Shown piece by piece: positions 934 through 32,743 of a stretch of 64,000 nt of DNA. A program made the position numbers and the translations under genes. The stretch comes from Escherichia phage LHE287. The notes below the pieces were generated by a model. The model was given only the letters and a program-made list of their open reading frames with translations. It was not told the origin of the DNA and did not search any database. The DNA lies in sequence record PP761450.1; one strand, given 5' to 3'. Position 1 is the stretch's first letter; each line of letters starts with the position of its first letter.

Positions 934-1590
934 ATGCGTAATGTTTCTATCTGGGAATTGAACGAAGTGATTTCCCGTGACACCCCTCCAATTGTCAGAC
1001 TCTTCCAATACAAGGGTGTCAAGCGCACTCTGAATGAGTTCCTGTCGCCTGTTTACGTCTACCGTGATGGCGGGTTCTTCCGCCGCGATAAAAACATCCC
1101 GAACCTTGGTATGACGTTTGATTTGAGTATCAAAGGCCAGGTTGTATTGATGGGTTATGGTAGCCTGGAACAATCTGAGAAAGGTCAGGGCGCTCCACTT
1201 ATGGTCTTCGGTTCTTTTGAACAAGCCGTGCACTGGCTGATCAGAAACGGATATGATTTCTATGGCGAAGAAAGCGCCAATTGGCGTCGTCGCAAGGTCA
1301 AGTCTGTTGATCTGGTGGATTTGAATCTGATGTACCAGGCCATGGCTCGCGAGTACGAAAAGAATCTCGTCAAGCCTGTCGCTCAGGAGAACAATGTTGT
1401 TAACACTACATCTGAGTCTTCTCATCATGACGTGAACATCGTTCCGGCCTGTGAAACGAAAGCGCCGACACCACCTACTCCTCCGGCCAGTCGTGTTCTG
1501 AATGATCAGGGCGCTCCGGTAAAACAAAAGGTCAAGAAGCCGACTTTCATGGAAAACATGATGAAGTTCCTTCGTCTGTTCAAGAAGTAA
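934..1590 (+). CDS. hypothetical protein (218 aa)
   Basis: ATG preceded by GAGGA RBS; no recognisable motif; lies 70 nt upstream of the PLP-enzyme gene. Confidence 0.55.
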   Translation: MRNVSIWELNEVISRDTPPIVRLFQYKGVKRTLNEFLSPVYVYRDGGFFRRDKNIPNLGMTFDLSIKGQVVLMGYGSLEQSEKGQGAPLMVFGSFEQAVHWLIRNGYDFYGEESANWRRRKVKSVDLVDLNLMYQAMAREYEKNLVKPVAQENNVVNTTSESSHHDVNIVPACETKAPTPPTPPASRVLNDQGAPVKQKVKKPTFMENMMKFLRLFKK

Positions 1591-1659
1591 TCCGAGATTC
1601 TCCTTTTCTATACTCCTGTAGATACACTATGATAAGCCAATGTCTACAGGAGAAATAGA

Positions 1660-2853: not shown

Positions 2854-2988
2854 TCCCTCCTAAATACCCCATACAACCAGTGTGGGGTATCTATGAAACC
2901 TTCCTCCAATATTTCCTAGAGGCGTCCTGTACAAACCAGGCCTGGCACCTAAATACCCCCATATGGCTAACCCACTGAGGAACCCAAC

Positions 2989-3447
2989 ATGCCAACCTCC
3001 AAATTGTTTGAATCAGAATACACCAATGACATCCCTGTATGGACTGGTGTTCAAGACGGTATCACGATTGAGCTGTTTGATCGTGAAGAGACAGGCGCGG
3101 AAGAGATCTATGCAGGCGTTGAAGGCACTGATGTTGTCCGCGCCGCCGTAGCACTTGCTACCTTCCTGGAAGATGCACCGATTGATGGTGTGCCGTTCGA
3201 GGCGCACGTAGATCCCAAGGATCCGACCTCTATCATCATTACAGTGAATGGGGTGCCATACACTTCCTACAGTATCGAGACGGACGAAGAGGGCAGCGGA
3301 GCGCTGTATATTGCCACCGACCTGCAGCTGGAAGACGATGAGATGGATTATCTGATTCAGAACGGGGTGCTGCCACCGTTTACCGATGAAGAACTGGACA
3401 CGGAACTGGCTGCTGTCGGGGACGACGAAGACTTCTGGGAAGAATAA
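2989..3447 (+). CDS. highly acidic protein (152 aa), candidate DNA mimic
   Basis: Asp/Glu-rich throughout (EELDTELAAVGDDEDFWEE); RBS GAGGA; followed by a bidirectional terminator. Confidence 0.55.
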   Translation: MPTSKLFESEYTNDIPVWTGVQDGITIELFDREETGAEEIYAGVEGTDVVRAAVALATFLEDAPIDGVPFEAHVDPKDPTSIIITVNGVPYTSYSIETDEEGSGALYIATDLQLEDDEMDYLIQNGVLPPFTDEELDTELAAVGDDEDFWEE

Positions 3448-3448
3448 G

Positions 3449-3471
3449 AAAAGGGGCTTTAAGCCCCTTTC
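3449..3471. terminator. bidirectional terminator between convergent genes
   Basis: Palindrome AAAGGGGCTT-t-AAGCCCCTTT with A-run upstream and T-run downstream. Confidence 0.65.
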
Positions 3472-3472
3472 T

Positions 3473-4024
3473 TCATTTCACCTTGCGAGTTGGATATTGG
3501 TTAAAGAGTTTGCCCAGCTTAGACACGTTGATGATTGTCTGGGTCTTCCAGCGCTGGATCCCTTCCGGGGTAGTCACGGTCAGGATTGAATGCCCCCAAA
3601 TGTGGGAACCGTCCAGCACAGCCGCGCTGTGGCTACCAATCTTGTCTTCCAGTTTGCAAATGAAAGATTCATACTGATGGGCAGCGTTGCAACGGGCTTC
3701 CTTGATGAACAGACGCTGGCGCTCTGGATCAGACTTGACGATGTTAGGCGCACCCACTTGATAAGAGCGGTTCGGCGGGTTATTGTCGGCGGTCAGGCTC
3801 ATATACAAAGACTGCTTTGCCTTCATGCGATGGTAATCGTGGTGACCCATTCTGACGCCAACAGTGGATGGCCAAGGAGCGCACTTCTGAAGATCCCAGC
3901 CGTTGGCGGCTAGATCGTCCATCACGTTCTTGATGATTTTGTTCGCGTACTGCTCGGCAGCTTCTTCGGCCTGCGACAACAGAGGCTCAACAGCGATACG
4001 GACAGCAGTTTTTGGCATTGTCAT
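3473..4024 (-). CDS. hypothetical protein (183 aa)
   Basis: ATG with AAGGA RBS on the minus strand; no recognisable motif. Confidence 0.55.
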   Translation of the reverse strand: MTMPKTAVRIAVEPLLSQAEEAAEQYANKIIKNVMDDLAANGWDLQKCAPWPSTVGVRMGHHDYHRMKAKQSLYMSLTADNNPPNRSYQVGAPNIVKSDPERQRLFIKEARCNAAHQYESFICKLEDKIGSHSAAVLDGSHIWGHSILTVTTPEGIQRWKTQTIINVSKLGKLFNQYPTRKVK

Positions 4025-4047
4025 GATATAGTCCTTCAGTTCAAAGT

Positions 4048-4065
4048 AAGCCCCCTGAGGGGCTT
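4048..4065 (-). terminator. hairpin downstream of the minus-strand gene (terminator or RNA-stability element)
   Basis: AAGCCCC-CTGA-GGGGCTT stem-loop; only a weak T-run. Confidence 0.35.
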
Positions 4066-4072
4066 CAGTCGA

Positions 4073-4630
4073 TTAGAAGCGGGAATCCAGCCAGGCGTTC
4101 TTTTCGTTCTGCCACTCCCAAGCGGCCTGACCGCCAGCCATGATCACTTCCAGGGAAGGAGTATTGTCATCCTCGCCGCCGTGAAGGTCAGGGTCGAAGC
4201 CGTCGTCTTCAGGATCGTCTTCACATTCATTCTGATAAGCGGAATATTCGATGTAATGGGCTTCGGCTTCGCAATCCATGTCACCCAGAGCTTCCTCGAG
4301 GGACATTTTGCCTTCGGCAATCAGCTCGGCAGTCGCATCGTCCAGGCCTGCGTCTTTCGCTTCAACGAACAGTTCGTGACGTTTCTGGAAAAGGAAGAAG
4401 TTCATGGCTTCAATGCGTGAGTCGAAGTACTCTTTGCGGGGAATCATGATTTCACGACCATCGACTTTGCTTACCATCAGCAGGTGTGAACCGTATTCAA
4501 CCAGGTAGCGACCGCCTTTCACTGGGTTGGAACCGTCAATTGTACCCAGAGTGGTGATTGCGCGGCCTTCTTCAGTACCGTACATTACAGTTTTGCCAGA
4601 TTTGGATTGAGCGATAATTTCGATTGCCAT
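4073..4630 (-). CDS. hypothetical protein with acidic C-terminal tail (185 aa)
   Basis: ATG with GAAGGAAA RBS; C-terminal DDPEDDGFDPDLHGGEDD. Confidence 0.55.
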   Translation of the reverse strand: MAIEIIAQSKSGKTVMYGTEEGRAITTLGTIDGSNPVKGGRYLVEYGSHLLMVSKVDGREIMIPRKEYFDSRIEAMNFFLFQKRHELFVEAKDAGLDDATAELIAEGKMSLEEALGDMDCEAEAHYIEYSAYQNECEDDPEDDGFDPDLHGGEDDNTPSLEVIMAGGQAAWEWQNEKNAWLDSRF

Positions 4631-4675
4631 GATGTATTTCCTTCTCTTCAGATTGTTGTTCGTACTACAATTAGA

Positions 4676-4704
4676 AGTATACGCCAGTTATTGAAGAAGT
4701 AAAC
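4676..4704 (-). promoter_or_regulatory. T4-early-type sigma70 promoter (GTTTAC-17-TATACT) for the minus-strand gene 4073..4630
   Basis: Minus strand reads TTATTGAATAAA-GTTTAC-ttcttcaataactggcg-TATACT, followed by the RBS and ATG of the downstream gene. Confidence 0.45.
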
Positions 4705-4721
4705 TTTATTCAATAAATATT

Positions 4722-4934
4722 TTAATAAATTTTGAACTCTGCTCCCTTGTACGTTGCCGATCCTCGTTCTATGAGGCCGTCAGGGACAATTACCTTTGTC
4801 GGCCAACCACCATCTGGAGCCTTAACAGTCAGGCGCGTCTTGTGATCTCCCAGCTGTGTTTGTTCATAGATCCTTCCGCGTACTATCGTCGCCCCGCCCT
4901 GGGTGACGAGCAATCTCTTGTTTACCACATTCAT
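4722..4934 (-). CDS. small hypothetical protein (70 aa)
   Basis: ATG preceded by AGGGA RBS. Confidence 0.45.
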   Translation of the reverse strand: MNVVNKRLLVTQGGATIVRGRIYEQTQLGDHKTRLTVKAPDGGWPTKVIVPDGLIERGSATYKGAEFKIY

Positions 4935-4976
4935 TCCCTAAACACCAAAAGAAAGGGGAGTTTCCTCCCCTTGAAC

Positions 4977-5549
4977 TTATTTCTTCAGATCAGGCCACGC
5001 ACCAGAGGTCGCAGTAGACCCAGCTGGGGGAGCAGACTCAAGATCGGGAGAACCCGACTGAGTAACAACAGTGGGATCTTTCTGTACGACCCGAACCCCA
5101 AATTGCTTGAGAGCATCCATAGCTTGGGCTTTTCGCCTGTTGCTTTTGTAGTGGTTGTAGCCTTTGATACCGAATGATGCACTAATTGCTGTCAATAACG
5201 AATAGGTATACCATTCAGGTGCAGTATCTAGTGCCTGAAGGCCACCGATTACTGCTTTGATGAAATCCCCTTTATGATACTCACCAGGGAACAGAATCAG
5301 TTCCACAACCGGAGCAGTCATGACGAGGATGGCGGGTATGGCCAACACGATAGTCCAGAATTCGTCTTTCCAAGACCCGCCGACTTCGGTAATCTTAGAC
5401 AGCTCCCAATCTGAGGAGGACTTGATGGCCTCCAGCTTGACGTCGTGTTTGGCCTGTACAACTTCCCGCTTATATTGGATCAAATCAGTCCCGAGGTTCC
5501 AGAGTTGCTTGAGCACCCCTGGGATCATACCAACGAGGGGGATTGCCAT
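4977..5549 (-). CDS. membrane protein (about 190 aa)
   Basis: Track ORF begins at an alternative codon; internal ATG (MAIPLVGMIPG) has an AAGGAG RBS; hydrophobic N-terminus and a second hydrophobic segment. Confidence 0.5.
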   Translation of the reverse strand: MAIPLVGMIPGVLKQLWNLGTDLIQYKREVVQAKHDVKLEAIKSSSDWELSKITEVGGSWKDEFWTIVLAIPAILVMTAPVVELILFPGEYHKGDFIKAVIGGLQALDTAPEWYTYSLLTAISASFGIKGYNHYKSNRRKAQAMDALKQFGVRVVQKDPTVVTQSGSPDLESAPPAGSTATSGAWPDLKK

Positions 5550-5628
5550 AATAAACTCCTTGGTCAATGAATGGCTCTATGGTTAAATATGCCCACGTGC
5601 TAACGGCACGGATAACCTGGAGAATTAC

Positions 5629-8628
5629 ATGACCGTTTTCTATACGAACGTTGCCCGCAGGGGCAATGACCTGTTGATTCGAATTGCAGATGACATGGGT
5701 AATCGCCGTCTGTTGAAAAAGAAATTCGAACCCACTCTCTATTTACCCACGGCTGACTATTCAAATGTTGAAAAGGTCGGTCTTCTCAATGAACCCCTGG
5801 TAGCCAAGCAGTTCCCTTCCATGCGTGACGCTGACAACTATCTTGAAGAGTACAAGGAAGTCCAGGGTGCTTCCATTTACGGACAGACCGATTATGCATA
5901 CCAGTTCATCGCCCATAGCTTTCCTGGAAAGATTGAGCCGGATTACTCCAACATCCATATTGCTAACCTCGATATCGAAGTGTTCTCCGCCGGGTGGAAA
6001 GACGGAAAGATGACCAAAGGTCCATTCCCTCACCCAACCATTGAGCAGCAGACGTTCAAAGGGAATGAGGCGCGCATTCGCCGCTTCCATAAACAAGTGC
6101 TGGCTAACCATGAATTTGTCCGTGAGCACTTCCCTGGTTCTTTCATCAGCAACAACGTCACTGATCAGTTCCCTATCATTGATAGCAATGGCAAGATCAC
6201 CCAGGACATGAATGCGGCGTTCCCCATTACCCTGATCCAGCTTCAGGATATGGCGACCAATAAGTTCATGGTCTGGGGTATGCCCTGTGCCAAAGATCGT
6301 AACAAATTCGCATACGACACCGAAGACAAAGAGATCGGCGGCCTTGAGGTTGTTTATCAGGAGTTCACCACCGAACAAGATCTGCTGCGCTCGTTCCTAG
6401 ACTTCTGGTCACAGCGTCAGTTCGACGGCTGGACAGGCTGGAACATTGAGACGTTTGATAGCCCTTATCTTGTTGAGCGCATGAATCAGGTTCTGGGTGA
6501 AGCCGAAACATCGCGCCTCAGTCCTTGGGGTATCATTAAGAAGCGTATCATTCGCGATAAGAAGGGCGATATCACGACGTATCAGTTCGTGGGTTGCCCT
6601 ATGCTCGATTATATGCAGATCTACAAGAAACACACGTACACCACCCGTGAACGCTACTCTCTTGACTGGATTGCGTATTGTGAGCTGGGTGAGAAGAAGA
6701 TGGACTACAGTGAGAGCAAGTCGCTCTTTGATCTGTACTTCAACGACTACTGCAAACACACCCGATATGGTATCAAAGACGTTAAGCTGGTATGGCGACT
6801 TGAACAGAAGCTGCGCCTGCTCCAGCTGATGTTCGTCCTGGCCTACCGCACCAAGTCCAACTATGAAGACGGTCTGGGCACTGTGGCTCCGTGGCTGGCC
6901 ATGTGCTACTATCGCCTGTACGAGAAGGGGATAGTGCCTAAGATCCAGCGTGTATACGATGGTCCGACCGACTTTGAGGGCGCATACGTCATGGATGTGA
7001 CACCAGGAATCTACTTCTGGGTCTTCTCGGAAGATTTGAACTCCCTGTATCCTCACATCATACAGCAGTACAACCTCGGTCCAGAGACTATCGTTGGCGA
7101 CAAACACCAGCGCCGCGAGATTATTGAGGCTATGTGTGAAGAGCTGGCTGCTCAGATGAATAACATGGCAACGCCGATGCACAAACGTCGGTTGATGAAA
7201 GCCCTTCACGACAAGCTGTTGCGTGCGGTTGACGAACGCCTGCAGGTTGTTGATGAGTTGGTTGCCCTGGGTGAGTTCCACTTTGAAACCCTGCGCCGCT
7301 ACAACGTGTCGTTCACGCCGAACGTTCAATTCTTCAGCAACGAGAAGATGTCGTTCCTGTCTGAAATCATGCGTGGTATCTACAGCGACCGTAAAGTAGA
7401 GAAGGCCAAGGGTCTGAAGTATGAGCAGTGGGCTGGCTGGTGTAAAGAGATGTCGAAGGGCGACTTCCATCTTGAGTCTGCCATGAAGTCTCGCTACTAT
7501 GACCCAGAGTGGTATGAAGAGCACAAGAACATTGATCTTGATGCCCTGACCGAAGTGATGAAGAAGTGGGAAGACCTGGGCGTTGCTCAAGATACCCTAC
7601 AGCAAGGTCTGAAGATCTTGATGAACGCAGGTTATGGCGCTATCTCGAACGTCTGGTTCAAAGAGTACTTCAACCTCAACATTGCCGAAGCCATCACCAC
7701 ATCCGGTCAGCTGATCAACAAGTGGAACAAGCGTTACACTGATGACTATCTGAACAAGCTGTGTGGTACAACAGGCCAGGACTTCGTCATCGCAGGTGAT
7801 ACCGACTCCAACTACATCTGCATTGAGCGTCTTGTCAAGCAGTTGTGGCCTGATGTTACTGACCATCATGCTATGGTTGATAATATCGACCAATGGATCA
7901 AAGACAACTACCAGCCGAAGACCAATGAGTGGGCACAGCTTCTGTGTAACACCATGAACGGATTTGAACAGCGCATGGTATGGGAGCGTGAGGTCATTGC
8001 GTCAGCCGCTGTCTGGCGAGCCAAGAAGATGTATGCCATGGCCGTGTACGACAGTGAGGGTATCAAGTACGAGAAGCCGAAGATCAAGTTCAAAGGTCTG
8101 GAAGCCCGCAAGTCCACCACGCCGGAATGGTGTCGTGAGCGTCTTGTCAAGTGTTATGAGAAGATCCTACTCGGCACCGAAGAGGAAGTACAGGCGCTCA
8201 TCTCCCAGTACAAAGAGGAGTACATGAAACTCTCTGTAGACGATATCGCCAAGGCTTCCGGCGTGTCCGACATAGAGAAGTGTGTGGCTGCTGACGGATC
8301 GTTCATCTCTGGTGCTCATTTTGCTGCCAAGGCGTGTGTGGGCTACAACCGTCTGGTTGAGAAGAACGAAGATCTGGGTCTACCGATGATCGAGTCGGGT
8401 GATAAGGTACAGATGGTGTTGTTGAAGCCGGGCAACCCGTTTGGGCAGAACTACTTTGCATATCCTGAGTTCTTCCCCGAGGAGCTTGGTCTGGGCAAAT
8501 GGGTGGATTATCAGGCGGCCTTTGAGAAGTCCTTCATTGATCCGATTCAGTCTATCCTCGACGTGGTCGGCTGGTCACACAAGCGCCGTGTGAACCTTCT
8601 TGCCATGATGCAAAAGAAGAAAGGTTGA
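5629..8628 (+). CDS. 43: family B DNA polymerase (T4 gp43-like), 999 aa
   Basis: Exonuclease motif LDIEV, polymerase motif A DLNSLYP, motif C GDTDS; size and T4-like genomic context. Confidence 0.95.
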   Translation: MTVFYTNVARRGNDLLIRIADDMGNRRLLKKKFEPTLYLPTADYSNVEKVGLLNEPLVAKQFPSMRDADNYLEEYKEVQGASIYGQTDYAYQFIAHSFPGKIEPDYSNIHIANLDIEVFSAGWKDGKMTKGPFPHPTIEQQTFKGNEARIRRFHKQVLANHEFVREHFPGSFISNNVTDQFPIIDSNGKITQDMNAAFPITLIQLQDMATNKFMVWGMPCAKDRNKFAYDTEDKEIGGLEVVYQEFTTEQDLLRSFLDFWSQRQFDGWTGWNIETFDSPYLVERMNQVLGEAETSRLSPWGIIKKRIIRDKKGDITTYQFVGCPMLDYMQIYKKHTYTTRERYSLDWIAYCELGEKKMDYSESKSLFDLYFNDYCKHTRYGIKDVKLVWRLEQKLRLLQLMFVLAYRTKSNYEDGLGTVAPWLAMCYYRLYEKGIVPKIQRVYDGPTDFEGAYVMDVTPGIYFWVFSEDLNSLYPHIIQQYNLGPETIVGDKHQRREIIEAMCEELAAQMNNMATPMHKRRLMKALHDKLLRAVDERLQVVDELVALGEFHFETLRRYNVSFTPNVQFFSNEKMSFLSEIMRGIYSDRKVEKAKGLKYEQWAGWCKEMSKGDFHLESAMKSRYYDPEWYEEHKNIDLDALTEVMKKWEDLGVAQDTLQQGLKILMNAGYGAISNVWFKEYFNLNIAEAITTSGQLINKWNKRYTDDYLNKLCGTTGQDFVIAGDTDSNYICIERLVKQLWPDVTDHHAMVDNIDQWIKDNYQPKTNEWAQLLCNTMNGFEQRMVWEREVIASAAVWRAKKMYAMAVYDSEGIKYEKPKIKFKGLEARKSTTPEWCRERLVKCYEKILLGTEEEVQALISQYKEEYMKLSVDDIAKASGVSDIEKCVAADGSFISGAHFAAKACVGYNRLVEKNEDLGLPMIESGDKVQMVLLKPGNPFGQNYFAYPEFFPEELGLGKWVDYQAAFEKSFIDPIQSILDVVGWSHKRRVNLLAMMQKKKG

Positions 8629-8690: not shown

Positions 8691-9032
8691 ATGAAACTCA
8701 ATAAGATTCTTCTGGTGTGTGCTCTGGCTTTCTCTACCACTGCGTGTTCCACCCTTCTGGACGTTGCTTCTACTGTAGACCTTGACGCGCCGACGTTCAC
8801 CAATGAGCAGGCCGTGTCCAAGATGGAAGACACCATCAAGGCGCATGCAGCACTGGACAACACTACCCCAGGTCCGCTCCAAACTGTCTGCAACTATGAC
8901 GATTCCATCCAGGAAGACGAAACTTACCACTGCATCACCTACGTGAAGCAGGCCTCCGTCGTTCTGTATGCAGATTGTACCGAAGAACAGTGTGTTGCTA
9001 CAGGCTACGATAAAGTTGAGGAAGACAAATGA
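8691..9032 (+). CDS. putative secreted protein or lipoprotein (113 aa)
   Basis: Signal-peptide-like N-terminus MKLNKILLVCALAFSTTAC with Cys after the hydrophobic core; internal ATG chosen for its AGGTGA RBS. Confidence 0.5.
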   Translation: MKLNKILLVCALAFSTTACSTLLDVASTVDLDAPTFTNEQAVSKMEDTIKAHAALDNTTPGPLQTVCNYDDSIQEDETYHCITYVKQASVVLYADCTEEQCVATGYDKVEEDK

Positions 9033-9805
9033 ACAACCTGGTTTGTATCTATGATATGAAATCAAAGGTCGGTGGCCTGTATCGCGTCCTCGTGGATGTT
9101 GACCTGACGTTGGTCGACAGCCTCTCCCCTTGGGTGCAGTGGTTTAACGAAGAGAATCTCAGCTTATCCAAGCATTATGACGGTCATGGACCAGCGCCGT
9201 TCCAGCCGATTACCAAAGAGTGTTATATGTCCCATGCTGGCGACCTGGCTATTCTGATGCGTGAACGTGCGCATCCGGCGTGGCTATACCATGAAGTCCA
9301 ATTGGGGATGCACAAACAACGTGTGCCAAGCGGTAACGATCCTATGGACTGGTGGCGTCGCCCTGACTTGTACGCCAAGATGAACCCACTTCCTGGCGCT
9401 TACGAGTTCCTGGTGAATCTGAAGAAGATTCTGCTCGAAGACTTTGACAATGTTGAATTCATCGCAGTGTCCAAGTGTGAGCCGGAACACGAGCGCAGCA
9501 AGCGCCAGTTTGTCTATGACAAGTTCCCTGGTATCTTCAACGGGTTTGTCAGCACCGACGAAAAGCATCTGCTGGCTGGCGATGTCCTGATTGATGACAA
9601 TCCGAAGTATGTCGAGCCATGCGGCCTGAACAACATCTTTGTCATCTTTGTTCCTCAGGGCAATTATGAAAAACTGGATCTTTCGAATTCGGAAGACATG
9701 CTTTATATTAAACCAGTAGAAGGCCAGAATCACTTCGACTTCCTGAACCGCAATATTGTCGAAGTGGTGAACCGCCTGATTAGTCATTATCAATACGTCC
9801 GATAG
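9029..9805 (+). CDS. HAD-superfamily phosphatase, candidate 5'(3')-deoxyribonucleotidase
   Basis: HAD motif I VDVDLTLVDS near the N-terminus and DD motif VLIDDNPKY; start overlaps the upstream stop. Confidence 0.45.
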   Translation: MNNLVCIYDMKSKVGGLYRVLVDVDLTLVDSLSPWVQWFNEENLSLSKHYDGHGPAPFQPITKECYMSHAGDLAILMRERAHPAWLYHEVQLGMHKQRVPSGNDPMDWWRRPDLYAKMNPLPGAYEFLVNLKKILLEDFDNVEFIAVSKCEPEHERSKRQFVYDKFPGIFNGFVSTDEKHLLAGDVLIDDNPKYVEPCGLNNIFVIFVPQGNYEKLDLSNSEDMLYIKPVEGQNHFDFLNRNIVEVVNRLISHYQYVR

Positions 9806-9814
9806 GAGGACATC

Positions 9815-10120
9815 GTGCAAGAACAATCCAAGTTCGGGGAAACCCCAGACAAGCATTCCGGTGATAGCGACATGGATGGTGTGATTATCTATGTGAACAA
9901 CTTCATTCGTCAGCAGGAGACTCCAACTCCTATCGGTGCAGCCAAGGCTCTTCATGATGTACTGGTGAAGATCGGCCAGCGCTCTGAAGCAGATGAAATC
10001 TTCTATAACTTCGACGACCAGTATAAAGTTAAGTTTGAAGAGAATGGCCACCCACAGGTTGCTGTGTTCTGGGCACCTTGGCTGGGCGGCGTGAGCTGGC
10101 GTATTGAGGATGCTGTGTAA
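9815..10120 (+). CDS. hypothetical protein (101 aa), GTG start
   Basis: GTG start with strong AGGAGGA RBS; stop overlaps the next start (TAATG). Confidence 0.5.
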   Translation: MQEQSKFGETPDKHSGDSDMDGVIIYVNNFIRQQETPTPIGAAKALHDVLVKIGQRSEADEIFYNFDDQYKVKFEENGHPQVAVFWAPWLGGVSWRIEDAV

Positions 10121-11037
10121 TGGCAAAAATTATCGTAGTGAAAGGAACCAGCGGTACGGGTAAGGGCACCCGTGTTGTCCAGTTCATCGAATGGCTGCGC
10201 ACTAAGCTGGAGCCTACCGAACTGACCTACACCGTTGGTGACAAGACTCGCCCGTTTGGCTTGAAGTTCGGAGAGCTGAAGTTAATCTTCGTTGGACAGT
10301 ACACCGTGTCTAACAAATCCGGCCTGGCTTCCTGGACTTCAATGGATGCAATCCATGCTGCTACAGGCTCAGGCGATATTGCTCGTGATCTAATCAAGTG
10401 CTGGTTGGTTCAGGGATACACTCTGGTGTGCGAGGGTGAACCCCTCATGCTGTCGGACAAATGGCGTCCTGAATGGATGTTCAAGAACTATCCGATTGAA
10501 TCATTGGCGCTGCTGTACTTTGCGTACCCCGACCGCTATCAGTACGATGCTCGTATCCGTGGTCGATCTGGTAAAGAAGCAGGGAACTCCGGCTGGTCGC
10601 GCAACGAATCTTACTACAAGGAGTTTGAGAAGTCGAAGGCCGAAATGCTGGCGCTGGGCTTCACTGTGGCTGTTGATGATTACAGCGGACAGGATATCCT
10701 GTATAAATCACCGGATGCCAACACCCAGGAGTTCACGACCAAACAGCAGTCCGAGTTGGCGGTACTACCGTTCGACGCCCCGCTGTGGGTTGTGGGTAAT
10801 GCGATTTGTCATCAGATACGCTCTGAACTGCGCGGTGTTGACATGCACACCAAAGACTTCTACGCCTACTGTGAAACCAATCCGATGACTCGTGAAATCG
10901 GCGGCCAGGATCCTTTGGCGCACAGAGTCCCTGAGAAGCCGCAGAAGGCATCCAAAACTAAAACCAAGGCGAGCGCCCAGCCAGAAGCAACGAAGGCAGC
11001 GTCGCGCTCTCTCCTTGACCTGATGAAGAAGGGGTGA
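10120..11037 (+). CDS. P-loop kinase, paralog of 51529..52188; candidate 5-hmdU DNA kinase
   Basis: Walker A GTSGTGKGT at the N-terminus, Walker-B-like LVCEGEP; shares motif order with the second P-loop protein; basic low-complexity C-terminus. Confidence 0.5.
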   Translation: MAKIIVVKGTSGTGKGTRVVQFIEWLRTKLEPTELTYTVGDKTRPFGLKFGELKLIFVGQYTVSNKSGLASWTSMDAIHAATGSGDIARDLIKCWLVQGYTLVCEGEPLMLSDKWRPEWMFKNYPIESLALLYFAYPDRYQYDARIRGRSGKEAGNSGWSRNESYYKEFEKSKAEMLALGFTVAVDDYSGQDILYKSPDANTQEFTTKQQSELAVLPFDAPLWVVGNAICHQIRSELRGVDMHTKDFYAYCETNPMTREIGGQDPLAHRVPEKPQKASKTKTKASAQPEATKAASRSLLDLMKKG

Positions 11038-25343: not shown

Positions 25344-27254
25344 ATGTCCAACAAAATTGATATTGAACGCAAGTACAAGAAGCTCACTCACGTTGAGCAT
25401 ATCCTACTCCGCCCAGAGCGTCATCTGGGTAGTATTCGTTCGTCTGTGGGGACGGTGTGGGTGTATGACCCAACTAAGGACAAAGTCATCTTCCGTGACA
25501 ACTTTGAGTACTCCCCCGCGCTGATCAAACAGTTTGATGAAATCATCACCAACTGTGTTGACCACAGCAAGACCCCTGAGGGCAAATCCCTGACGGAAAT
25601 CACCGTCACAGTTTCCCCGATGAACGGTCAAATCATCGTTGCTGACAACGGGGGTATCCCTGTGGTCAAGCATGGCGTCACCAACGAGTGGCTTCCTGAA
25701 ATGTTGTTCGGCTCTCTATATGCGGGATCGAACTTCAACGACGAAGACGAAGAGTACAACAACCAGAAGTCCGGTGGTCAGAATGGCGAAGGGGCGTCCC
25801 TCGTCAACGTGTTCTCCAAATGGTTCCGCGTCACGACTAATGACGGCAAGAAGTCTTATACTCAGACGTTTGAAGACAACATGAGCAAGAAATCTAACCC
25901 AGTCATCAGCAACGTGAACAGTCCTGGCACATCCATCGCCTGGATCCCTGACTATGCTCGTCTGGGCGTCAAAGGACTTGACCAGAACAACCTGCTGATG
26001 ATCTATCGCCGCGCGTTTGAAGTGGCTGCGTGTAACCCGCGCCTGAAGATTGTTCTCAACGGGAAGCAAATCCGGATTGACCGCTTTGGCCACTTCGTTG
26101 ATTACTTCCATGCTGGCTCGGCTGTTGACGAAACCGGGGATTGGTCTGTTGCTGTAGCCCCTTCATCCGGTACGTTCATGCACGCATCATACGTGAACTC
26201 TATTGCCACCCACATCGGTGGTCCTCACGTTGATTATGTTGCTGACCAGATCGTGGCAGCGATTCGTCCCCAGCTGGTGAAGAAGTTCAAGACCGAACTG
26301 AAGCCAGCAATGATCAAGAACCACATGTCCTTGTTCATCGCCGCCGACATCAACAACCCGCGCTTTGACAGCCAGACCAAGGAGCGCATGACCACTCCTG
26401 TCAGCCAGTTCGGTACGTCGTACAAGCCCAGTGATAAACTGATCCGCAAGGCGCTTGAGTTCGTTACGGCTGGTCTGAGCAAAGAACTGGCTTCCCTGCG
26501 CAATGAGCAGGACGATGCTGAGTTTGAAAAGGCCAAGAAGGACATCAGCAAGCGGGATTATCGTGAGATTGAGAAGTATTACCCGGCGACCGCCCGTGGT
26601 GACCGCAGCGGATGCTCCCTGTTGCTGACAGAGGGTGATAGTGCCTCCAATCCTATCCTGAACGCCCGCGACACCAAGAAGATCGGGTTGTTCCCGCTTC
26701 GTGGTAAGTTCATCAACTGCCTGAACGCCCCGCGCTCAAAGGTGATGAACAATGAAGAGTTCAAGAACCTGTGTACGATCCACGGCGGCGCAGTGCCAGG
26801 CCAGCCCCTTGATATCACCCGTTACCCACAGACTGTTGTGGCTACCGATGCGGACGATGACGGCATCCACATCCGTGGGTTGTTGATCACCCTGTATTGC
26901 ACCTACTGGCCGGAGTACGTCCGTCAGGGCAGGTTGAAGCTCCTGCGCACCCCTTACATGCGTGTGTGGTGTGGTAAGGTGATGCATGAGTTCATGAACA
27001 ACGCAGAGTATGAGGAGTTCCTGAAGACGCCTGATGCCAAGAAGATTACGAAGAAGAAATATCTGAAAGGTCTGGGTGGTAACAGCACTGAAGACTTCAA
27101 ACGTATTCTAAACAACCTGGATGCGTATACTACGACGGTCACGCTGGACGATGGCTATCAACAGTCACTGAAGAATGGCTTCGGTGATGAGGCCGCCGAT
27201 TACCGCAAAACCTGGTTTAGCGATGTTTGTCTATTTGAGACTGAGGATGAATAA
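25344..27254 (+). CDS. 39: DNA topoisomerase II large subunit (T4 gp39/gp60-like fused ATPase), 636 aa
   Basis: GyrB-type motifs EHILLRP and ADNGGIP; TOPRIM-like region; immediately followed by the gp52-like subunit. Confidence 0.85.
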   Translation: MSNKIDIERKYKKLTHVEHILLRPERHLGSIRSSVGTVWVYDPTKDKVIFRDNFEYSPALIKQFDEIITNCVDHSKTPEGKSLTEITVTVSPMNGQIIVADNGGIPVVKHGVTNEWLPEMLFGSLYAGSNFNDEDEEYNNQKSGGQNGEGASLVNVFSKWFRVTTNDGKKSYTQTFEDNMSKKSNPVISNVNSPGTSIAWIPDYARLGVKGLDQNNLLMIYRRAFEVAACNPRLKIVLNGKQIRIDRFGHFVDYFHAGSAVDETGDWSVAVAPSSGTFMHASYVNSIATHIGGPHVDYVADQIVAAIRPQLVKKFKTELKPAMIKNHMSLFIAADINNPRFDSQTKERMTTPVSQFGTSYKPSDKLIRKALEFVTAGLSKELASLRNEQDDAEFEKAKKDISKRDYREIEKYYPATARGDRSGCSLLLTEGDSASNPILNARDTKKIGLFPLRGKFINCLNAPRSKVMNNEEFKNLCTIHGGAVPGQPLDITRYPQTVVATDADDDGIHIRGLLITLYCTYWPEYVRQGRLKLLRTPYMRVWCGKVMHEFMNNAEYEEFLKTPDAKKITKKKYLKGLGGNSTEDFKRILNNLDAYTTTVTLDDGYQQSLKNGFGDEAADYRKTWFSDVCLFETEDE

Positions 27255-27255
27255 G

Positions 27256-28587
27256 ATGGTTGCTAAGAGTATTACTGTAACGGACTTTGTCAACACTGAC
27301 CATAAGCAGTTTTCTGTGGTCAACAGCATCCGTCAAATCCCTCAGCTGATTGACAGCCTCAAGCCAAGCCAGCGCAAGATCCTCTTTGCTGCTCTTGAGT
27401 ACAACAAGGAGGAGATCGTTGACCGCCTTGGTATGTTCGCCGCCGCTCGCACCAACTACAAGTCTGGTGGGGAGAACATGAGCGGCACTATCGTGAACAT
27501 GGCTCAGGGGTTCCCAGGCACGAATAATATCCCGTACTTTGACCGCGATGGCCAGTTTGGTTCTATCATGGGGCGTGATGCTTCATCTGCCCGATACATA
27601 TCCGTCGCTGTATCTGACGTTATCCGCAAGATCTTCCGCAAGGAGGATGAGGGTATCTTGGAATACAACTACCTTGGTGAAGAAAGGCTGGAGCCGAAGT
27701 TCTTTCTGCCCATCCTGCCCATGTTCCTGGTGAATGGAATCAATGGTATCGGCACCGGATATTCCACCGACACCCCGTGTCATTGCGTTAAGTCCGTGCT
27801 CAGTGCCCTGAGAGCGCTTCTCCGTGGCGAAGACCCGAAAGACTTAAAACCGTACTGGAACGGCTTCAAAGGAGAGACAGGCTATACTGAGGAAGGAAGA
27901 GCATACAGTCGCGGCATCTTCCGTCGCGTCAATGCCACCACCCTGCATATCACCGAAGTCCCAGTGGGCTGGTTTGCCAAAACCTATGAGACCAAGGTGT
28001 TGCTGCCTCTGTACAAGGCAGGTATCCTCACCGAGTACGCCAACGACACGACCGAAGATGGCTGGGATATCACGGTTGTGTTTAAGCGCGGCGAACTCTC
28101 TAAGCTGAGTGACGAGCAGGTTGAGCAGATGTTCAAGCTGTATTCAGCCACCAAGCCTGTTTGGACGGCATGGGATGAAGACGGTGTTATTCATCGTTAT
28201 TCTGGTTGGCGGGATATGTTGCTGCCGTTCTTCAATTATCGCCTGTCACGGTACGAAGACCGTCGCCAGTATCTGTTGAAGGACATGGCAGACAGGATCC
28301 GCAAGCTGGGTGACCGGGCGGTGTTCATTGAATGGGCGACGCGTGTTGATCTCCGCCAAAAGATTGACGTGCTGAAGTCTCTGTTCATGCAGGACTACCC
28401 GGACTTTGGTGGTGATCTTGACGAGTTGTTCAAGATGCCTCTGTCGTCTATTACTCTGGACGCCCGTGAGCGCCTACTGAAGCAGATTGAGAACCTTGAA
28501 GCACAGCACAAGGAATTAAGTAAGAAAGAGGACATCGATCTTTACACTGAAGACCTTGATGACCTTGAAAAGGCTCTTGGTCTTTAA
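27256..28587 (+). CDS. 52: DNA topoisomerase II medium subunit (T4 gp52-like, GyrA-like)
   Basis: LKPSQRKILFAAL motif; ATG 1 nt after the upstream stop with GAGGA RBS (the track ORF starts upstream, in overlap). Confidence 0.8.
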   Translation: MVAKSITVTDFVNTDHKQFSVVNSIRQIPQLIDSLKPSQRKILFAALEYNKEEIVDRLGMFAAARTNYKSGGENMSGTIVNMAQGFPGTNNIPYFDRDGQFGSIMGRDASSARYISVAVSDVIRKIFRKEDEGILEYNYLGEERLEPKFFLPILPMFLVNGINGIGTGYSTDTPCHCVKSVLSALRALLRGEDPKDLKPYWNGFKGETGYTEEGRAYSRGIFRRVNATTLHITEVPVGWFAKTYETKVLLPLYKAGILTEYANDTTEDGWDITVVFKRGELSKLSDEQVEQMFKLYSATKPVWTAWDEDGVIHRYSGWRDMLLPFFNYRLSRYEDRRQYLLKDMADRIRKLGDRAVFIEWATRVDLRQKIDVLKSLFMQDYPDFGGDLDELFKMPLSSITLDARERLLKQIENLEAQHKELSKKEDIDLYTEDLDDLEKALGL

Positions 28588-28949: not shown

Positions 28950-29227
28950 ATGGATGATTCCTTGTATTTTCATTGTCCTGGGTGTGATATACTTCACCCA
29001 TATCGCATTAAGGGCGAAACCCAAGGTCCGATGTGGTCGTGGAACAACAATGTTATTGAGCCTACGTTCACACCGAGCCTGCTGGTGAATGTATCTGATC
29101 CAGCATCATTTGCCATCTGTTCCTGACCGACGGCAAAATACAATTCCTCGGCGACTGTTTCCATGATCTGAAGAACCAGACAGTGGATATGGTCGACATC
29201 TCTGAACCTGAAATTTGGATTGAATAG
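28950..29227 (+). pseudogene. split ORF: two short ORFs in frames 0 and -1 that together encode a Cys/His-rich protein of about 92 aa
   Basis: ORF A 28950..29126 (MDDSLYFHCPGCDILHPY...DPASFAICS*) and overlapping ORF B ending about 29227 (...CHLFLTDGKIQFLGDCFHDLKNQ...EIWIE*), which has no start codon of its own. Confidence 0.3.
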
Positions 29228-29230
29228 ATT

Positions 29231-29641
29231 ATGAAATTACTGGGATATTTTCGTGAACTCCCAACGGGAACTGAAGGCAAGTTGTTCTCACAGGTGAAGG
29301 GGGATGACATCGGTGATACGATGATTCCATTGTACACTCGTGAACTTCCTGTCGAAGGTGCCTGGGAGCGCCGTGTGGTCGCTGCCGCCAACAAATATGG
29401 TGATGTGATCGTCGTTGCCGACCGTCACCACAGCCGATTCATGAACAGCCAGCTCAAGATCCTGAAAGAAGCAGGCGTCATTAAATCCACCCATACCCGC
29501 GAACAGGGATTCATCGACAACCAGGGCAACTTCCTCACTCGTGAAGAGGCGTGCATCGTAGCCCGTGAAGCTGGACAGATCAATCAGGTGCGCCTGAAGA
29601 CAACCCCTTTCCGCGAACTCTTTTCCGAAGACCTCTATTGA
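29231..29641 (+). CDS. hypothetical protein (136 aa)
   Basis: ATG-initiated ORF. Confidence 0.5.
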   Translation: MKLLGYFRELPTGTEGKLFSQVKGDDIGDTMIPLYTRELPVEGAWERRVVAAANKYGDVIVVADRHHSRFMNSQLKILKEAGVIKSTHTREQGFIDNQGNFLTREEACIVAREAGQINQVRLKTTPFRELFSEDLY

Positions 29642-29691
29642 AGAAAAAGGCGGTATTATTACCGCCTCGACCTCTTGTTTGGTAACATCAA

Positions 29692-29934
29692 ATGAGCCCA
29701 GAATTTGAAAACCTGTTCGAGCGTTGCTTCGAACCAGGTTCTGTGTCCGGTTACATGGACCGCCTTTGCACTGCCATTGTAATACGCCTTGCTGCCAAGG
29801 GTATCGTTGTCAACACCATTATCAACAATGGGAACAATTTTATCATGCAGATGACTGATTATCACCACCGCACAGGCATCATCCAGGTGTCATGTGTTGA
29901 CAACAGCATTATTGAATGGAGACAGTACGCATGA
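29692..29934 (+). CDS. hypothetical protein (80 aa)
   Basis: ATG-initiated ORF; stop overlaps the macro-domain gene start. Confidence 0.4.
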   Translation: MSPEFENLFERCFEPGSVSGYMDRLCTAIVIRLAAKGIVVNTIINNGNNFIMQMTDYHHRTGIIQVSCVDNSIIEWRQYA

Positions 29935-30530
29935 CCACATATGTAATCAACGGTGGCGATTTACTGAAAGCCGCCTGTAGCTTCAATCTGATCGACATCT
30001 TTGCCCACGGTGCCAACTGTTGGTCTACCATGGGCGCGGGCATTGCTCTGCACATCGGTAACAACTTCCCAGCCCTGCGTGAAGTCGATGCGAACGACCC
30101 TCGTGGTCCAGAGCAACGCCTGGGTGGTATGTCCTATGCATTTGACCACAGCAAGGGCGTTTGGGGCGCGAACCTCTACACTCAGTTCTATCCAGGTCCG
30201 AACGCTCGCATGCCGTCTGTCATCAGTTCTGTTCAGATGTTATTCGAGCAGGTTCACGAAATTGTGGAAGCAACTAAAGACGAAACTGTCTATGTCGGCC
30301 TGCCTGCTATCGGCTGTGGTATTGGTGGTCTGAACCTCTACAGTGTAGTGCGTCATATCAATCGAATCTCTGAAAGCGTGTATGAAGAGACCCGCCGTCG
30401 TGTCGTCCCAGTCTTCTATATCAGGGAAGGAGACGGATTCGATGATGATCTGATGGAACTTTCTCATCTGGACACAGAAGGTATCATGATTGTCGAAGAT
30501 GAGCAAGAAATCATCGACGAGGAGGCGTAA
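29931..30530 (+). CDS. macro-domain protein (ADP-ribose binding / hydrolase family)
   Basis: IFAHGANCWSTMGAGIALHIG resembles the macro NAAN...GGGV.GAI motif; later VYVGLPAIGCGIGGL; start moved to the internal ATG with GGAGA RBS. Confidence 0.55.
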   Translation: MTTYVINGGDLLKAACSFNLIDIFAHGANCWSTMGAGIALHIGNNFPALREVDANDPRGPEQRLGGMSYAFDHSKGVWGANLYTQFYPGPNARMPSVISSVQMLFEQVHEIVEATKDETVYVGLPAIGCGIGGLNLYSVVRHINRISESVYEETRRRVVPVFYIREGDGFDDDLMELSHLDTEGIMIVEDEQEIIDEEA

Positions 30531-31163
30531 ATGTACAAGTCTAATTTCCTTGCAGTTGCCGACAGCGAAACCCTGGGTCGCTGGGATGATGCAGTCATGT
30601 TGTCCTGGGCGCACACCATCGCCGACCTGACCAAGCGTTATACTCTTCAGCAGCTGGTTGAGGAGCGCACGACGTTCATTAAGCTGAATGTCAAAGAGCA
30701 GCTCGAACTTGGTCGCGTGAAGGACCAGGGGACGGTAGAATGGTGGCTGGGCACGGGCAAGCGCAACCCGTGTGATGCGGCTCGCGCCGTCAGTCTGTAC
30801 CCGACTGAGCAGGACATCTCTATCTTCCAGCTGGCCGATGAAATCCGCAAGGGTTGTCATCGTCTTGGGGTAGACCCGCGCTCGGTTGACTGGTGTGATC
30901 GCAACCTGTTTGATCTGCGCAAGGCTCAGCACATCATTGAGGTGACATGTAAGCAGGACTCCAACGAGCCATGGGACTACCACCACACCTTCGACATCGT
31001 GAGCTGGCTGAAGGGTGTTGGGCAACAGGATCGCTACGCTGGCATCAAGGCGTGGGAACTGGAAGGTATGGTCTATCACGACCCTCGTTATGACGCTGCG
31101 CTTGACTGGCTGCGTATTCAGAAGACCATGGAAGATCTGATGGGTCTGGAGGTTGTGGGATGA
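30531..31163 (+). CDS. DEDD-family 3'-5' exonuclease (DnaQ-like; T4 DexA-like)
   Basis: Exo I motif FLAVADSETLG (D-x-E); later YHHTFDIVSW and YHDPRYDA resemble Exo II / Exo III. Confidence 0.45.
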   Translation: MYKSNFLAVADSETLGRWDDAVMLSWAHTIADLTKRYTLQQLVEERTTFIKLNVKEQLELGRVKDQGTVEWWLGTGKRNPCDAARAVSLYPTEQDISIFQLADEIRKGCHRLGVDPRSVDWCDRNLFDLRKAQHIIEVTCKQDSNEPWDYHHTFDIVSWLKGVGQQDRYAGIKAWELEGMVYHDPRYDAALDWLRIQKTMEDLMGLEVVG

Positions 31164-31462
31164 TTGTATTCACTGTCATCGGTGTGATCGTAACAGCTGG
31201 GGTGTTCACAGCCATATTGGGCTACCTGTACTTCATGTTCCTTCATCCGTTATTTCAGGCGTTCAGTCTCACGAATTGGTACTTGGCCTGCCTAAAGGCC
31301 GACGGCGGCGTGAACATGGCCTCTCTTCCTTACTGGCGGCTGGTAGCGCATTACTACTCGGTCGGTGGCTGGCCTGGGGAAAGGACATGGAACTCTATCG
31401 GTGAGTGGTATGGAATAGGTCGATGGCGTATATTCCCTGATGAAGATGATCAAGCCCCGTGA
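31160..31462 (+). CDS. membrane protein (100 aa)
   Basis: N-terminal TM helix MIVFTVIGVIVTAGVFTAILGYLYF. Confidence 0.45.
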   Translation: MIVFTVIGVIVTAGVFTAILGYLYFMFLHPLFQAFSLTNWYLACLKADGGVNMASLPYWRLVAHYYSVGGWPGERTWNSIGEWYGIGRWRIFPDEDDQAP

Positions 31463-31473
31463 GGGGCTTTTCT
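31452..31473 (+). terminator. rho-independent terminator
   Basis: AAGCCCC-gtga-GGGGCTT followed by TTC. Confidence 0.65.
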
Positions 31474-31526
31474 ATATCTGGGATAGAGTATCATTGGTTC
31501 ACCAACGAATCCTCGTGAGAGGTGAT

Positions 31527-31868
31527 ATGAAACGTTCGGTTGTTGTAAATGACATCACGAGATTGATAAACCTTGTCAAAGATGTGTTTCCACAACAGGT
31601 GGATGTCGAGTACGTGGGGAAGAACGGGAAGTGTTACCAGGTTGCTCTACTTCTGAAGCACGTGTATCCCCAAGCAGAGATCCATTACAGTCAGACCGAA
31701 GGTCATGTGTATACTCTGATTGATGGGCATTACTACGACATCGACGGCATCCACTTCAGTGTCCCACCGGACACGTGTTTGCTCGAACACAACAGAGGTC
31801 ACAAACCACATCGCTGGCATAAAGGGTTTGTGAACGTACCGATTTTAGAATGGTTGAGGAGACCATAA
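31527..31868 (+). CDS. hypothetical protein (about 113 aa)
   Basis: Internal ATG (MKRSVVVND) with GAGAGGTGA RBS, downstream of the terminator. Confidence 0.45.
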
Positions 31869-32422
31869 TGGCAGGAATTGTAAAGTATCTGGGCGACACC
31901 CACCTCGGACACAAGAAGGTCTTCAAGCCCCGTGGGTTCGATACCCAAGAGGCGCATGATGCTGCAGTCATCGACAGTATCTTTCAGGGGCTGAAGTCCC
32001 GAGACGTCCTTGAACTTGCAGGCGACATATGCTTCATCGGGGCTGAGGGGTTCATTCGCCTGATGCGCGAGGGTGCCAAGCGGAATATTGATGAGTTCAA
32101 GCGCCGCCCGGTTCCCGATGACTGGCGACCGAACTTTATCATCAGGGTGGCGCAAGGCAACCATGACAGCTTCAAGATGTTGATGAAGCTGTATCAAGAG
32201 GGATGGATTAGCTCCTTTGGTGCGATGTATGAGCGTGATACTCCGGTTGGTCGTGTGCTGACCACTCACGTTCCTTATCAATTAGACCGCTGGGCGTATA
32301 ATATCCATGGTCATCTTCACGAAAATATTCGCGAAGAGCGCGAATACCTGAACTGTAGTTGGGAACAGTTCAAGCGCCCTGTAACCCTGTCTGAGTTGTT
32401 ATACACCAATCTGGGGATTTGA
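31868..32422 (+). CDS. calcineurin-like metallophosphoesterase
   Basis: Motifs GDTHLG, GNHD and GHLH in canonical order; GAGGAG RBS. Confidence 0.6.
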
Positions 32423-32425
32423 AAT

Positions 32426-32743
32426 ATGAAAATTTATTTTCCTGGCCAAAAAGTGCCTTCTGAAGTGCAGAAGGTCACAATCACAGGCTACCGGAAAGGG
32501 GATCCATATCTGCGCTTCTCCTCTCCATGTATCGTGAAGCAAACTAAAACGGGTTATTATATCAGGCCGATTGTGTTGATGGGCTGTGTAATGACATTCA
32601 GAGCTTCCTGTGAACACGTTCTTATACAAGGAAGTCCGAACATCGAAGGTGGAGAAACCCACATGAACTGCAAGCCGATTATCCCGACATGGTTGATTAT
32701 TGGTGTGCTTTCCGTTTTGGCTCTGAAAGGAGTATTGTCATGA
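32426..32743 (+). CDS. hypothetical protein (105 aa)
   Basis: ATG-initiated ORF. Confidence 0.45.
   Translation: MKIYFPGQKVPSEVQKVTITGYRKGDPYLRFSSPCIVKQTKTGYYIRPIVLMGCVMTFRASCEHVLIQGSPNIEGGETHMNCKPIIPTWLIIGVLSVLALKGVLS

Follow-up and report, generated by a model that had tools for sequence, protein, structure and literature searches.

A macrodomain gene in Escherichia phage LHE287 is most likely an anti-DarTG2 factor, whose product, judged by its homology to T4 Tk.4/AdfM and by an active site of the SCO6735 type, would remove the ADP-ribose that a host toxin attaches to phage DNA. The gene lies in a 64,000-nucleotide stretch of sequence record PP761450.1 (referred to here as the window), where it is followed on the plus strand by genes for a DexA-like exonuclease and a small metallophosphoesterase. 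The original prediction had joined these three enzymes into a combined anti-defense locus that would counter ADP-ribosylating toxins and degrade nucleotide second messengers. All three were found as plus-strand open reading frames (ORFs) just where they had been placed, and the macrodomain protein is best read as a counter to an ADP-ribosylating toxin; the messenger-degrading roles of the other two enzymes and the combined locus did not hold up. The explanation favored here, which we regard as moderately probable when taken as a whole, is that the macrodomain, exonuclease, and phosphoesterase genes are independent of each other, with one of them (the macrodomain gene) being counter-defense-like, and do not form one system.

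The macrodomain gene (29931 to 30530, plus strand) encodes a protein of 199 amino acids. Its ORF is open from 29916, but homologs begin with MTTYV, making 29931 the likely start. Single-sequence searches of Pfam, NCBIfam, and the Protein Data Bank (PDB) were too weak to classify either this protein or the phosphoesterase, as both fell below curated thresholds, and domain calls were made with family profiles and structure models instead. For example, the single macrodomain sequence scored 16 bits against Pfam Macro, where the cutoff is 22, and its sole NCBIfam match was to DarG (4e-8; 32.8 bits versus a cutoff of 250; profile positions 6 to 135 of 338). A PADLOC scan of all ten ORFs likewise returned one match, that of the macrodomain protein to DarG (4e-7; DarG positions 20 to 134 of 329). 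With the family profile, PDB matches extended to DarG macrodomains (2e-17 and 1e-15), SCO6735 (3e-13), TARG1 (4e-13), BT1257, and Poa1p (8e-10). The AlphaFold (AF2) model had a predicted local distance difference test (pLDDT) score of 96.5, and the best folds in Foldseek were TARG1, Poa1p, and DarG. The protein is a member of the class of ALC1-like macrodomains, together with TARG1, DarG, and SCO6735.

Sequence comparison further identifies the protein as a full-length homolog in the T4 Tk.4/AdfM family. As a query, it matched 2,662 of 50,697 phage records, T4-like phages with their tk.4 genes among them, and it falls in phrog_335 (6e-64). Identity to T4 Tk.4 was 33% by BLASTP (E value of 2e-15), and hhalign of the family profile to T4 Tk.4 gave 99.9% (E value of 3.5e-34) over all 150 columns. 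The motifs AHG.NC, NLYTQF.PGPN, and P.IG.GIG are common to both proteins, MG.G.A is also identical, and the active-site motifs recur in JS98 Tk.4, wV8 gp12, and JG004 gp16.

The predicted macrodomain active site consists of H26, N29, T84-Q85, and G128/G130. In an alignment of 46 homologs, H26, G27, N29, C30, G37, N81, T84, Q85, G89, P125, and G130 were invariant, as was G128. The NLYTQ motif of the family aligns with NFPTK in DarG, LITK in TARG1, MFPTK in PhiKZ AdfM, and NMIGQ in SCO6735, and in profile, hhalign, and MAFFT alignments the invariant Gln85 occupies the column of the catalytic Lys (K80 in T. aquaticus DarG). A pairwise alignment to DarG had instead put a Gly at the catalytic position, a placement that was rejected because the three independent profile or multiple alignments all put the invariant Gln there. 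AHGAN of the window protein aligns with AHVCN of SCO6735, and a 5-residue insertion relative to DarG, in the "mobile loop," follows the Gln. The SCO6735/Bt_1257 subclass is defined by these features (a catalytic-position Gln, His-x-x-Asn, and a mobile loop of greater length), and Gln85 of the window protein aligns with Gln85 of SCO6735. This residue is essential in SCO6735 (a Q85A variant is inactive), an enzyme that removes ADP-ribose from thymidine, not guanosine, in single-stranded DNA and protects cells from DarT. Subtyping by profile, a check proposed along with the original prediction, thus returned the Tk.4/AdfM family with an SCO6735-type site and not a housekeeping subtype. The protein also differs from a DarG2 antitoxin, having Gln85 in place of the catalytic Lys, and the C-terminal DarT-binding domain of DarG was not matched in the NCBIfam and PADLOC searches, where the alignments cover the macrodomain part only.

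Genetic data on this family come from T4. In a November 2025 preprint describing HIDEN-SEQ, tk.4 was the single transposon-screen hit for T4 on a DarTG2 host, a clean tk.4 deletion sensitized T4 to DarTG2, and the gene was named adfM (10.1101/2025.11.20.689424). According to an earlier report, T4 without adfA and adfN stays DarTG2 resistant, and a role for tk.4 as a T4 anti-DarTG2 factor fits this persisting resistance. The name AdfM was given independently to PhiKZ gp104, a Lys-type macrodomain that de-ADP-ribosylates DNA (Cell Rep 2026, PMC13309987).

Because of its Tk.4/AdfM homology and SCO6735-type active site, we infer both an activity and a phenotype for the window protein, which most likely acts as an anti-DarTG2 factor by an SCO6735-type mechanism. 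It would bind ADP-ribosylated thymidine in single-stranded phage DNA and hydrolyze the ADP-ribose that DarT2, the host toxin, attaches there, and in hosts with DarTG2 this removal would allow replication and packaging to resume. Gln85 and His26/Asn29 would position the distal ribose and water, instead of the Lys mechanism used by DarG and TARG1.

Comparison with characterized relatives delimits this assignment. Like the window protein, T4 Tk.4/AdfM is a stand-alone macrodomain in a large lytic enterobacterial myovirus, but the window protein is ~45 residues longer, with an acidic C-terminal extension, and its gene sits in a DUF7234/macrodomain/dexA neighborhood rather than the vs/tk.4/tk.3 neighborhood of T4. 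SCO6735 (Streptomyces coelicolor, PDB 5E3B) is also ALC1-like, with Gln for Lys, His-x-x-Asn, and the mobile-loop insertion. Identity between the two is ~22%, however, the DNA-contacting Lys34 of SCO6735 aligns with Ala36 of the window protein, and SCO6735 is a bacterial DNA-damage-inducible gene rather than a phage gene. PhiKZ gp104, the AdfM of chimalliviruses, is homologous to the window protein (hhalign, 97.9%) yet belongs to a different subfamily. Both PhiKZ AdfM and the DarG2 macrodomain have the same proposed job as the window protein, removal of DarT2 ADP-ribose from DNA, but PhiKZ AdfM (MFPTK) and DarG (NFPTK) keep the catalytic Lys, whereas in the window family this residue is always Gln (NLYTQ). 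Unlike the chimalliviruses, the family to which the window phage belongs is not known to form a phage nucleus.

Several points weigh against an anti-DarTG2 role. The identity to T4 Tk.4 is just 33%, and the T4 result is a genetic one from a preprint that also inferred enzymatic removal (10.1101/2025.11.20.689424). In Ackermannviridae, the function is a prediction from the homology to T4 Tk.4 and SCO6735. The family is annotated as "phosphatase" owing to its resemblance to Poa1p (profile E value of 8e-10, fold rank 4), and a small-molecule ADP-ribose substrate is possible. In Pakpunavirus JG004 (942 to 4462), the macrodomain gene is directly downstream of Nampt-like and phosphoribosyl pyrophosphate (PRPP)-synthetase-like genes, near an RNA ligase gene, and this context, an NAD+ reconstitution-type pair, hints at ADP-ribose/NAD metabolism for some family members.

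The alternative that survives best, although we consider it unlikely, is that the macrodomain protein acts on a small-molecule ADP-ribose derivative and not on DNA, in metabolic cleanup, NAD+ recycling, or signal destruction. Candidate substrates, taken together in the same estimate, are ADP-ribose-1''-phosphate (Poa1p-like), O-acetyl-ADP-ribose, and a Thoeris-type ADP-ribose signal. Poa1p ranks high among both the fold and the profile matches and presumably shares the H-x-x-N-C motif with the window protein, public records label the family "phosphatase" or "A1pp phosphatase motif," and the neighbors in other phages would suit such a role (Nampt-like, PRPP-synthetase-like, and RNA ligase genes in JG004; a polynucleotide kinase gene upstream in wV8). 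The survey by Aravind also favors soluble ADP-ribose substrates for many phage macrodomains. However, the best-scoring characterized relatives (DarG, SCO6735, and TARG1) are all hydrolases of ADP-ribosylated thymidine (dT-ADPr) in DNA, the catalytic position holds the Gln essential in SCO6735, and a family member in T4 has a specific DarTG2 phenotype.

By sequence, the window gene is a new Ackermannviridae representative of the recently described AdfM kind. Ackermannviridae phages are in wide use against Salmonella, E. coli O157, Shigella, and Klebsiella, both for biocontrol and in therapy, and if the function of this AdfM-type gene is as proposed, DarTG2-bearing strains are predicted not to restrict them. 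Counter-defense by a Gln-type (SCO6735-like) macrodomain would also be widened from T4 to a family found in 2,662 of the 50,697 phage records.

The one unexplained feature of the macrodomain protein is its C-terminal extension, a clade-specific, acidic segment of about 35 residues (~155/165 to 199; window positions 30393 to 30530). It has a net charge of −11 in the window protein and −5 to −13 in Ackermannviridae homologs, is predicted to be ordered (pLDDT of 94 to 96), and is conserved in Ackermannviridae and absent from T4-type Tk.4 proteins. A speculative role, and a long shot, is that of a single-stranded-DNA mimic that binds and blocks DarT2, like the DarG C-terminal domain and ICP1 AdfB. 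The protein would in this case be a miniature two-pronged antitoxin, combining an enzymatic eraser that uses Gln-type catalysis with a stoichiometric inhibitor.

The exonuclease gene (30531 to 31163, plus strand; 210 amino acids) abuts the macrodomain gene as originally described, its ATG beginning on the base right after the macrodomain stop codon. Homology and catalytic residues identify the product as a putative DexA-like DEDDh 3′-5′ exonuclease. Its alignment to T4 DexA (PDB 8KEL; E value of 1e-4) covers the full length at about 25% identity, and the protein matches phrog_255 at 2.5e-53. All five DEDDh residues of the window protein (D11, E13, D128, H183, and D188) align with those of DexA (D7, E9, D119, H186, and D191; the published DexA catalytic list prints the Glu as E12), and both proteins are encoded in a phage early-gene context. 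T4 DexA is a DNA exonuclease with roles in host-DNA scavenging and homing (PMC12153337). It discriminates DNA containing 5-hydroxymethylcytosine (5hmC), which is recognized by residues W152 and D169, and undergoes a temperature-dependent dimer/tetramer switch. Like T4 DexA, the window exonuclease would most likely trim DNA 3′ ends, contributing to the breakdown of host DNA to nucleotides and to gap widening in homing or recombination. Ackermannviridae are known for modified thymidines, not 5hmC, so any modification sensing by the window exonuclease would differ from that of T4 DexA. In a distant Vibrio phage, dexA and the dCMP deaminase gene alone persist at the locus, beside anaerobic ribonucleotide reductase genes (NrdD/G) and with no macrodomain or phosphoesterase gene, an arrangement that ties the exonuclease gene to nucleotide metabolism and not to the macrodomain gene.

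The third enzyme is a small binuclear metallophosphoesterase (31868 to 32422, plus strand; 184 amino acids) of the D29 gp66/T5.034/Aquifex aq_1665 subfamily, and its start is placed at 31868 because homologs begin with MAGIV. The single sequence had no Pfam match at the Metallophos or Metallophos_2 threshold, and 18 of 40 aligned relatives matched Metallophos. A word-seeded search recovered close relatives only, while an exhaustive profile search recovered 2,128 clusters. The five metallophosphoesterase motifs (DxH, GD, GNH[DE], H, and GHxH) are present in the window protein, and D10, H12, D53, N98-H99-D100, H134, H147, H149, and H151 were invariant in 40 diverse homologs. The best solved relative by profile was Aquifex aq_1665 (1xm7; 1e-19), which was also the best fold match (AF2 model pLDDT of 97.1), with SbcD/Mre11, GpdQ, LpxH, and Rv0805 following at a distance by both profile and fold. 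Membership in the calcineurin-like superfamily rests on these motifs, the profile, and the fold. Alignment of the profile to mycobacteriophage D29 gp66 with hhalign was full length (99.5%; E value of 7.5e-23), and identity to T5.034, which in T5 is a separate gene adjoining the NinI-like phosphatase gene T5.035, was 28%. Related records carry the label "serine/threonine phosphatase," which is unsupported, as is "phosphatase" in public records for these genes: no chain of the PPP family (lambda-PPase/PP1) was found among the profile or fold matches of the phosphoesterase, the best of which were the 1xm7, SbcD/Mre11, GpdQ, LpxH, and Rv0805 entries.

The mycobacteriophage Cluster A enzymes D29 gp66, Bxb1 gp47, and A10ZJ24 gp48 belong to the same subfamily as T5.034, aq_1665, and the window phosphoesterase, although motifs II and III are set apart in the window family by an insertion of ~25 residues. 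Functions reported within this subfamily diverge. Bxb1 gp47 acts as a recombination directionality factor, a broad phosphoesterase activity is ascribed to D29 gp66, which is reported to hydrolyze cAMP among other esters, and A10ZJ24 gp48 damages host DNA, thereby blunting defense-gene expression. Given this divergence, no substrate is transferable to the window protein, which is predicted to be a catalytically intact Mn/Fe-type phosphodiesterase/phosphatase with a substrate that is most plausibly nucleic acid or nucleotide.

Insertions in relatives, a terminator-like hairpin, and the absence of linkage outside Ackermannviridae indicate that the three genes do not form a tight unit. The order topoisomerase II, macrodomain-dexA, phosphoesterase, and dCMP deaminase is kept in Agtrevirus, Kuttervirus, and Klebsiella Ackermannviridae. 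In Kuttervirus Se-J, an extra gene lies between the macrodomain gene and dexA, and a QueC-like (PP-loop) gene and others lie between dexA and the phosphoesterase gene, where ChubbyThor has two extra genes. In the window, the hairpin at 31452 to 31469 separates the phosphoesterase unit from the macrodomain and exonuclease genes. No macrodomain-dexA-phosphoesterase linkage was found in the T4-like, FelixO1-like, Pakpunavirus, T5, and Vibrio phages sampled; in T4-like MIZ2, for example, 44 kb separate the macrodomain gene from dexA. Neighbors of the macrodomain family elsewhere are those of vs/tk.4/tk.3 (T4 and JS98), an upstream polynucleotide kinase gene (wV8), or NAD-salvage-like genes (JG004). 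Since the Aravind survey found macrodomains in about 41% of myoviruses, there is nothing remarkable in a macrodomain that adjoins other hydrolases in an array of early genes, and adjacency of enzymes in such an array is weak evidence for a functional locus.

Sequence divergence also follows individual genes. Identity to Kuttervirus Se-J between 28600 and 34600 is mosaic, ranging from 43 to 97% per gene, with DexA and the phosphoesterase at 95 to 97%, neighbors at 43 to 86%, the macrodomain protein in midrange at 72%, and the dCMP deaminase at 63%. In Klebsiella phage phi1_146021, DexA is 91% identical and the phosphoesterase 53%. This pattern suggests recent exchange of individual genes between genera. 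Unusually fast evolution of the macrodomain gene, considered because of its 72% identity to Kuttervirus versus 95 to 97%, was rejected in favor of general mosaicism, as its neighbors span 43 to 97%. Against independence of the three genes, the order conserved across three enteric Ackermannviridae genera makes some functional coupling possible, and the terminator call is a consensus match only, of a kind found 9 times in the region versus 4.9 expected.

One form of coupling, which strikes us as rather unlikely, is a DNA turnover and repair set, part of the nucleotide-metabolism arm, in which the phosphoesterase would nick or degrade host DNA, DexA would turn the fragments into mononucleotides to supply phage synthesis, and the macrodomain protein would clear ADP-ribose lesions from single-stranded phage DNA. 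The stretch is flanked by topoisomerase II and dCMP deaminase genes, and deoxyribonucleotidase, dUTPase, dNMP kinase, and thymidylate-synthase-like genes are also in the window. Host-DNA scavenging is a known role of DexA, and a phosphoesterase of the same subfamily (A10ZJ24 gp48) disrupts host genomic DNA. DexA and the phosphoesterase are moreover the two most conserved genes of the stretch (95 to 97% identical to Kuttervirus; neighbors, 43 to 86%). Nuclease activity of the window phosphoesterase is hypothetical, however, and members of its subfamily differ in function; the physical linkage is family specific, and coregulation is unsupported.

Very improbable is the single anti-defense locus, in which ADP-ribosylation would be reversed by the macrodomain protein, and messengers of CBASS, Thoeris, Pycsar, or type III CRISPR would be degraded by the two hydrolases. 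In its favor, all three hydrolases appear catalytically intact by sequence, Agtrevirus, Kuttervirus, and Klebsiella Ackermannviridae keep their order, cAMP hydrolysis is reported for D29 gp66, and the region is plastic, as anti-defense regions often are. Against it, the exonuclease is a homolog of DexA, which has DNA substrates, the nearest phosphoesterase relatives are uncharacterized or mixed (1xm7, Bxb1 gp47, and A10ZJ24 gp48), neither enzyme matched PADLOC or showed a link to cyclic nucleotides, and the stretch is split by a terminator-like hairpin and unlinked outside Ackermannviridae. The folds differ as well, those of the window enzymes being DEDDh and metallophosphoesterase rather than 2H-phosphoesterase or metallo-β-lactamase (MBL); the known messenger-degrading enzymes Acb1 and Apyc1 have 2H and MBL folds, respectively. 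The literature was also searched for metallophosphoesterases of phages able to degrade immune signals, and only the host-DNA-damaging mycobacteriophage gp48 turned up. Independent genes, with a counter-defense-like role for the macrodomain protein and the other two enzymes as ordinary DNA-metabolism functions of a phage, are the reading that we retain.

These genes are set in the genome of a phage of the Ackermannviridae. Over the surrounding 4 kb, the sequence is 97% identical to Escherichia phage vB_EcoM-ZQ1 (ZQ1), with which the window is collinear, and 90 to 97% identical to other Aglimvirinae/Agtrevirus phages, and 220 Ackermannviridae-type records match. The window encodes a split DNA polymerase, deoxyribonucleotidase, rIIA/B, topoisomerase II, dCMP deaminase, ligase, primase-helicase, UvsX, dUTPase, dNMP kinase, and a thymidylate-synthase-like protein, with baseplate genes interspersed, and covers the replication and nucleotide-metabolism arm of the phage genome. 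The macrodomain, exonuclease, and phosphoesterase stretch is a codirectional plus-strand run between the end of topoisomerase II (28587) and the start of dCMP deaminase (33459), and is part of a long codirectional array of early/middle genes. A promoter scan of the region was at the level of shuffled sequence (7 found versus 6.9 expected) and was not used.

The small ORFs interspersed among the three enzymes are real genes of conserved families (phrog_839/PF26092, DUF7234, phrog_2531, YunG-like PF24591, and DUF7618), all on the plus strand. The first (29231 to 29641; 136 amino acids) is a conserved phage protein of phrog_839, homologs of which carry a precomputed PF26092 assignment. An RH...QGF...R..A...Q core is invariant in its family, and the extreme C terminus, LFSEDLY, is conserved and looks like a docking tail. 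Homolog searches, a profile search of the PDB, and the PF26092 literature yielded no function and no solved relative, and the local Pfam search gave no match; the labels "tRNA processing enzyme" and "C-N hydrolase" in related records are unsubstantiated. The DUF7234 protein (29692 to 29934; 80 amino acids; PF23881 at 2e-40, phrog_5593) is encoded immediately upstream of the macrodomain gene, whose start its ORF overlaps by 4 nucleotides. Downstream of the exonuclease gene, a 100-amino-acid protein with a hydrophobic N terminus (31160 to 31462; phrog_2531) is highly divergent, with 40 to 45% identity among relatives.

The terminator-like hairpin (31452 to 31469, plus strand), a consensus match reading AAGCCCC-GTGA-GGGGCTT and followed by the T-rich tail TTCTATATCT, spans the end of this 100-amino-acid ORF, with the stop codon in the loop. 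Relatives carry their inserted genes at this site, which may both end transcripts and act as a hotspot for recombination or insertion. The YunG-like protein (PF24591; 31527 to 31868; 113 amino acids) probably starts at 31527 and not at 31440, as the ATG at 31527 is preceded by a GAGG ribosome-binding site; its stop codon overlaps the phosphoesterase start by 1 nucleotide. A DUF7618 protein (32426 to 32743; 105 amino acids) is encoded directly downstream of the phosphoesterase.

Other features of the window concern genes further upstream. The equivalent of ChubbyThor gp55 (28950 to 29231; 105 amino acids, with a CPGC...C.H motif) is broken in the window by a 1-nucleotide deletion in a T-run near 29107 to 29112, and is broken differently in ZQ1, where the start is changed from ATG to ACG and a 1-nucleotide deletion lies in an A-run. 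Either a dispensable gene has decayed independently in the two phages, or the breaks are homopolymer sequencing errors. At ~3244 to 7426, following the ZQ1 annotation, the family-B DNA polymerase is encoded as several separate coding sequences with a hypothetical gene between them, and a putative homing endonuclease gene of 1.6 kb (8918 to 10516) is located near the polymerase genes. Mobile-element interruptions appear to be frequent in this arm, in line with a role of DexA related to homing. Finally, the medium-subunit ORF of topoisomerase II can be taken to begin further upstream, giving an 80-nucleotide overlap with the large-subunit ORF (27175 to 27254); relatives place the medium-subunit start at ~27254 to 27256 or use overlapping starts, and the choice of start is inconsistent among records.

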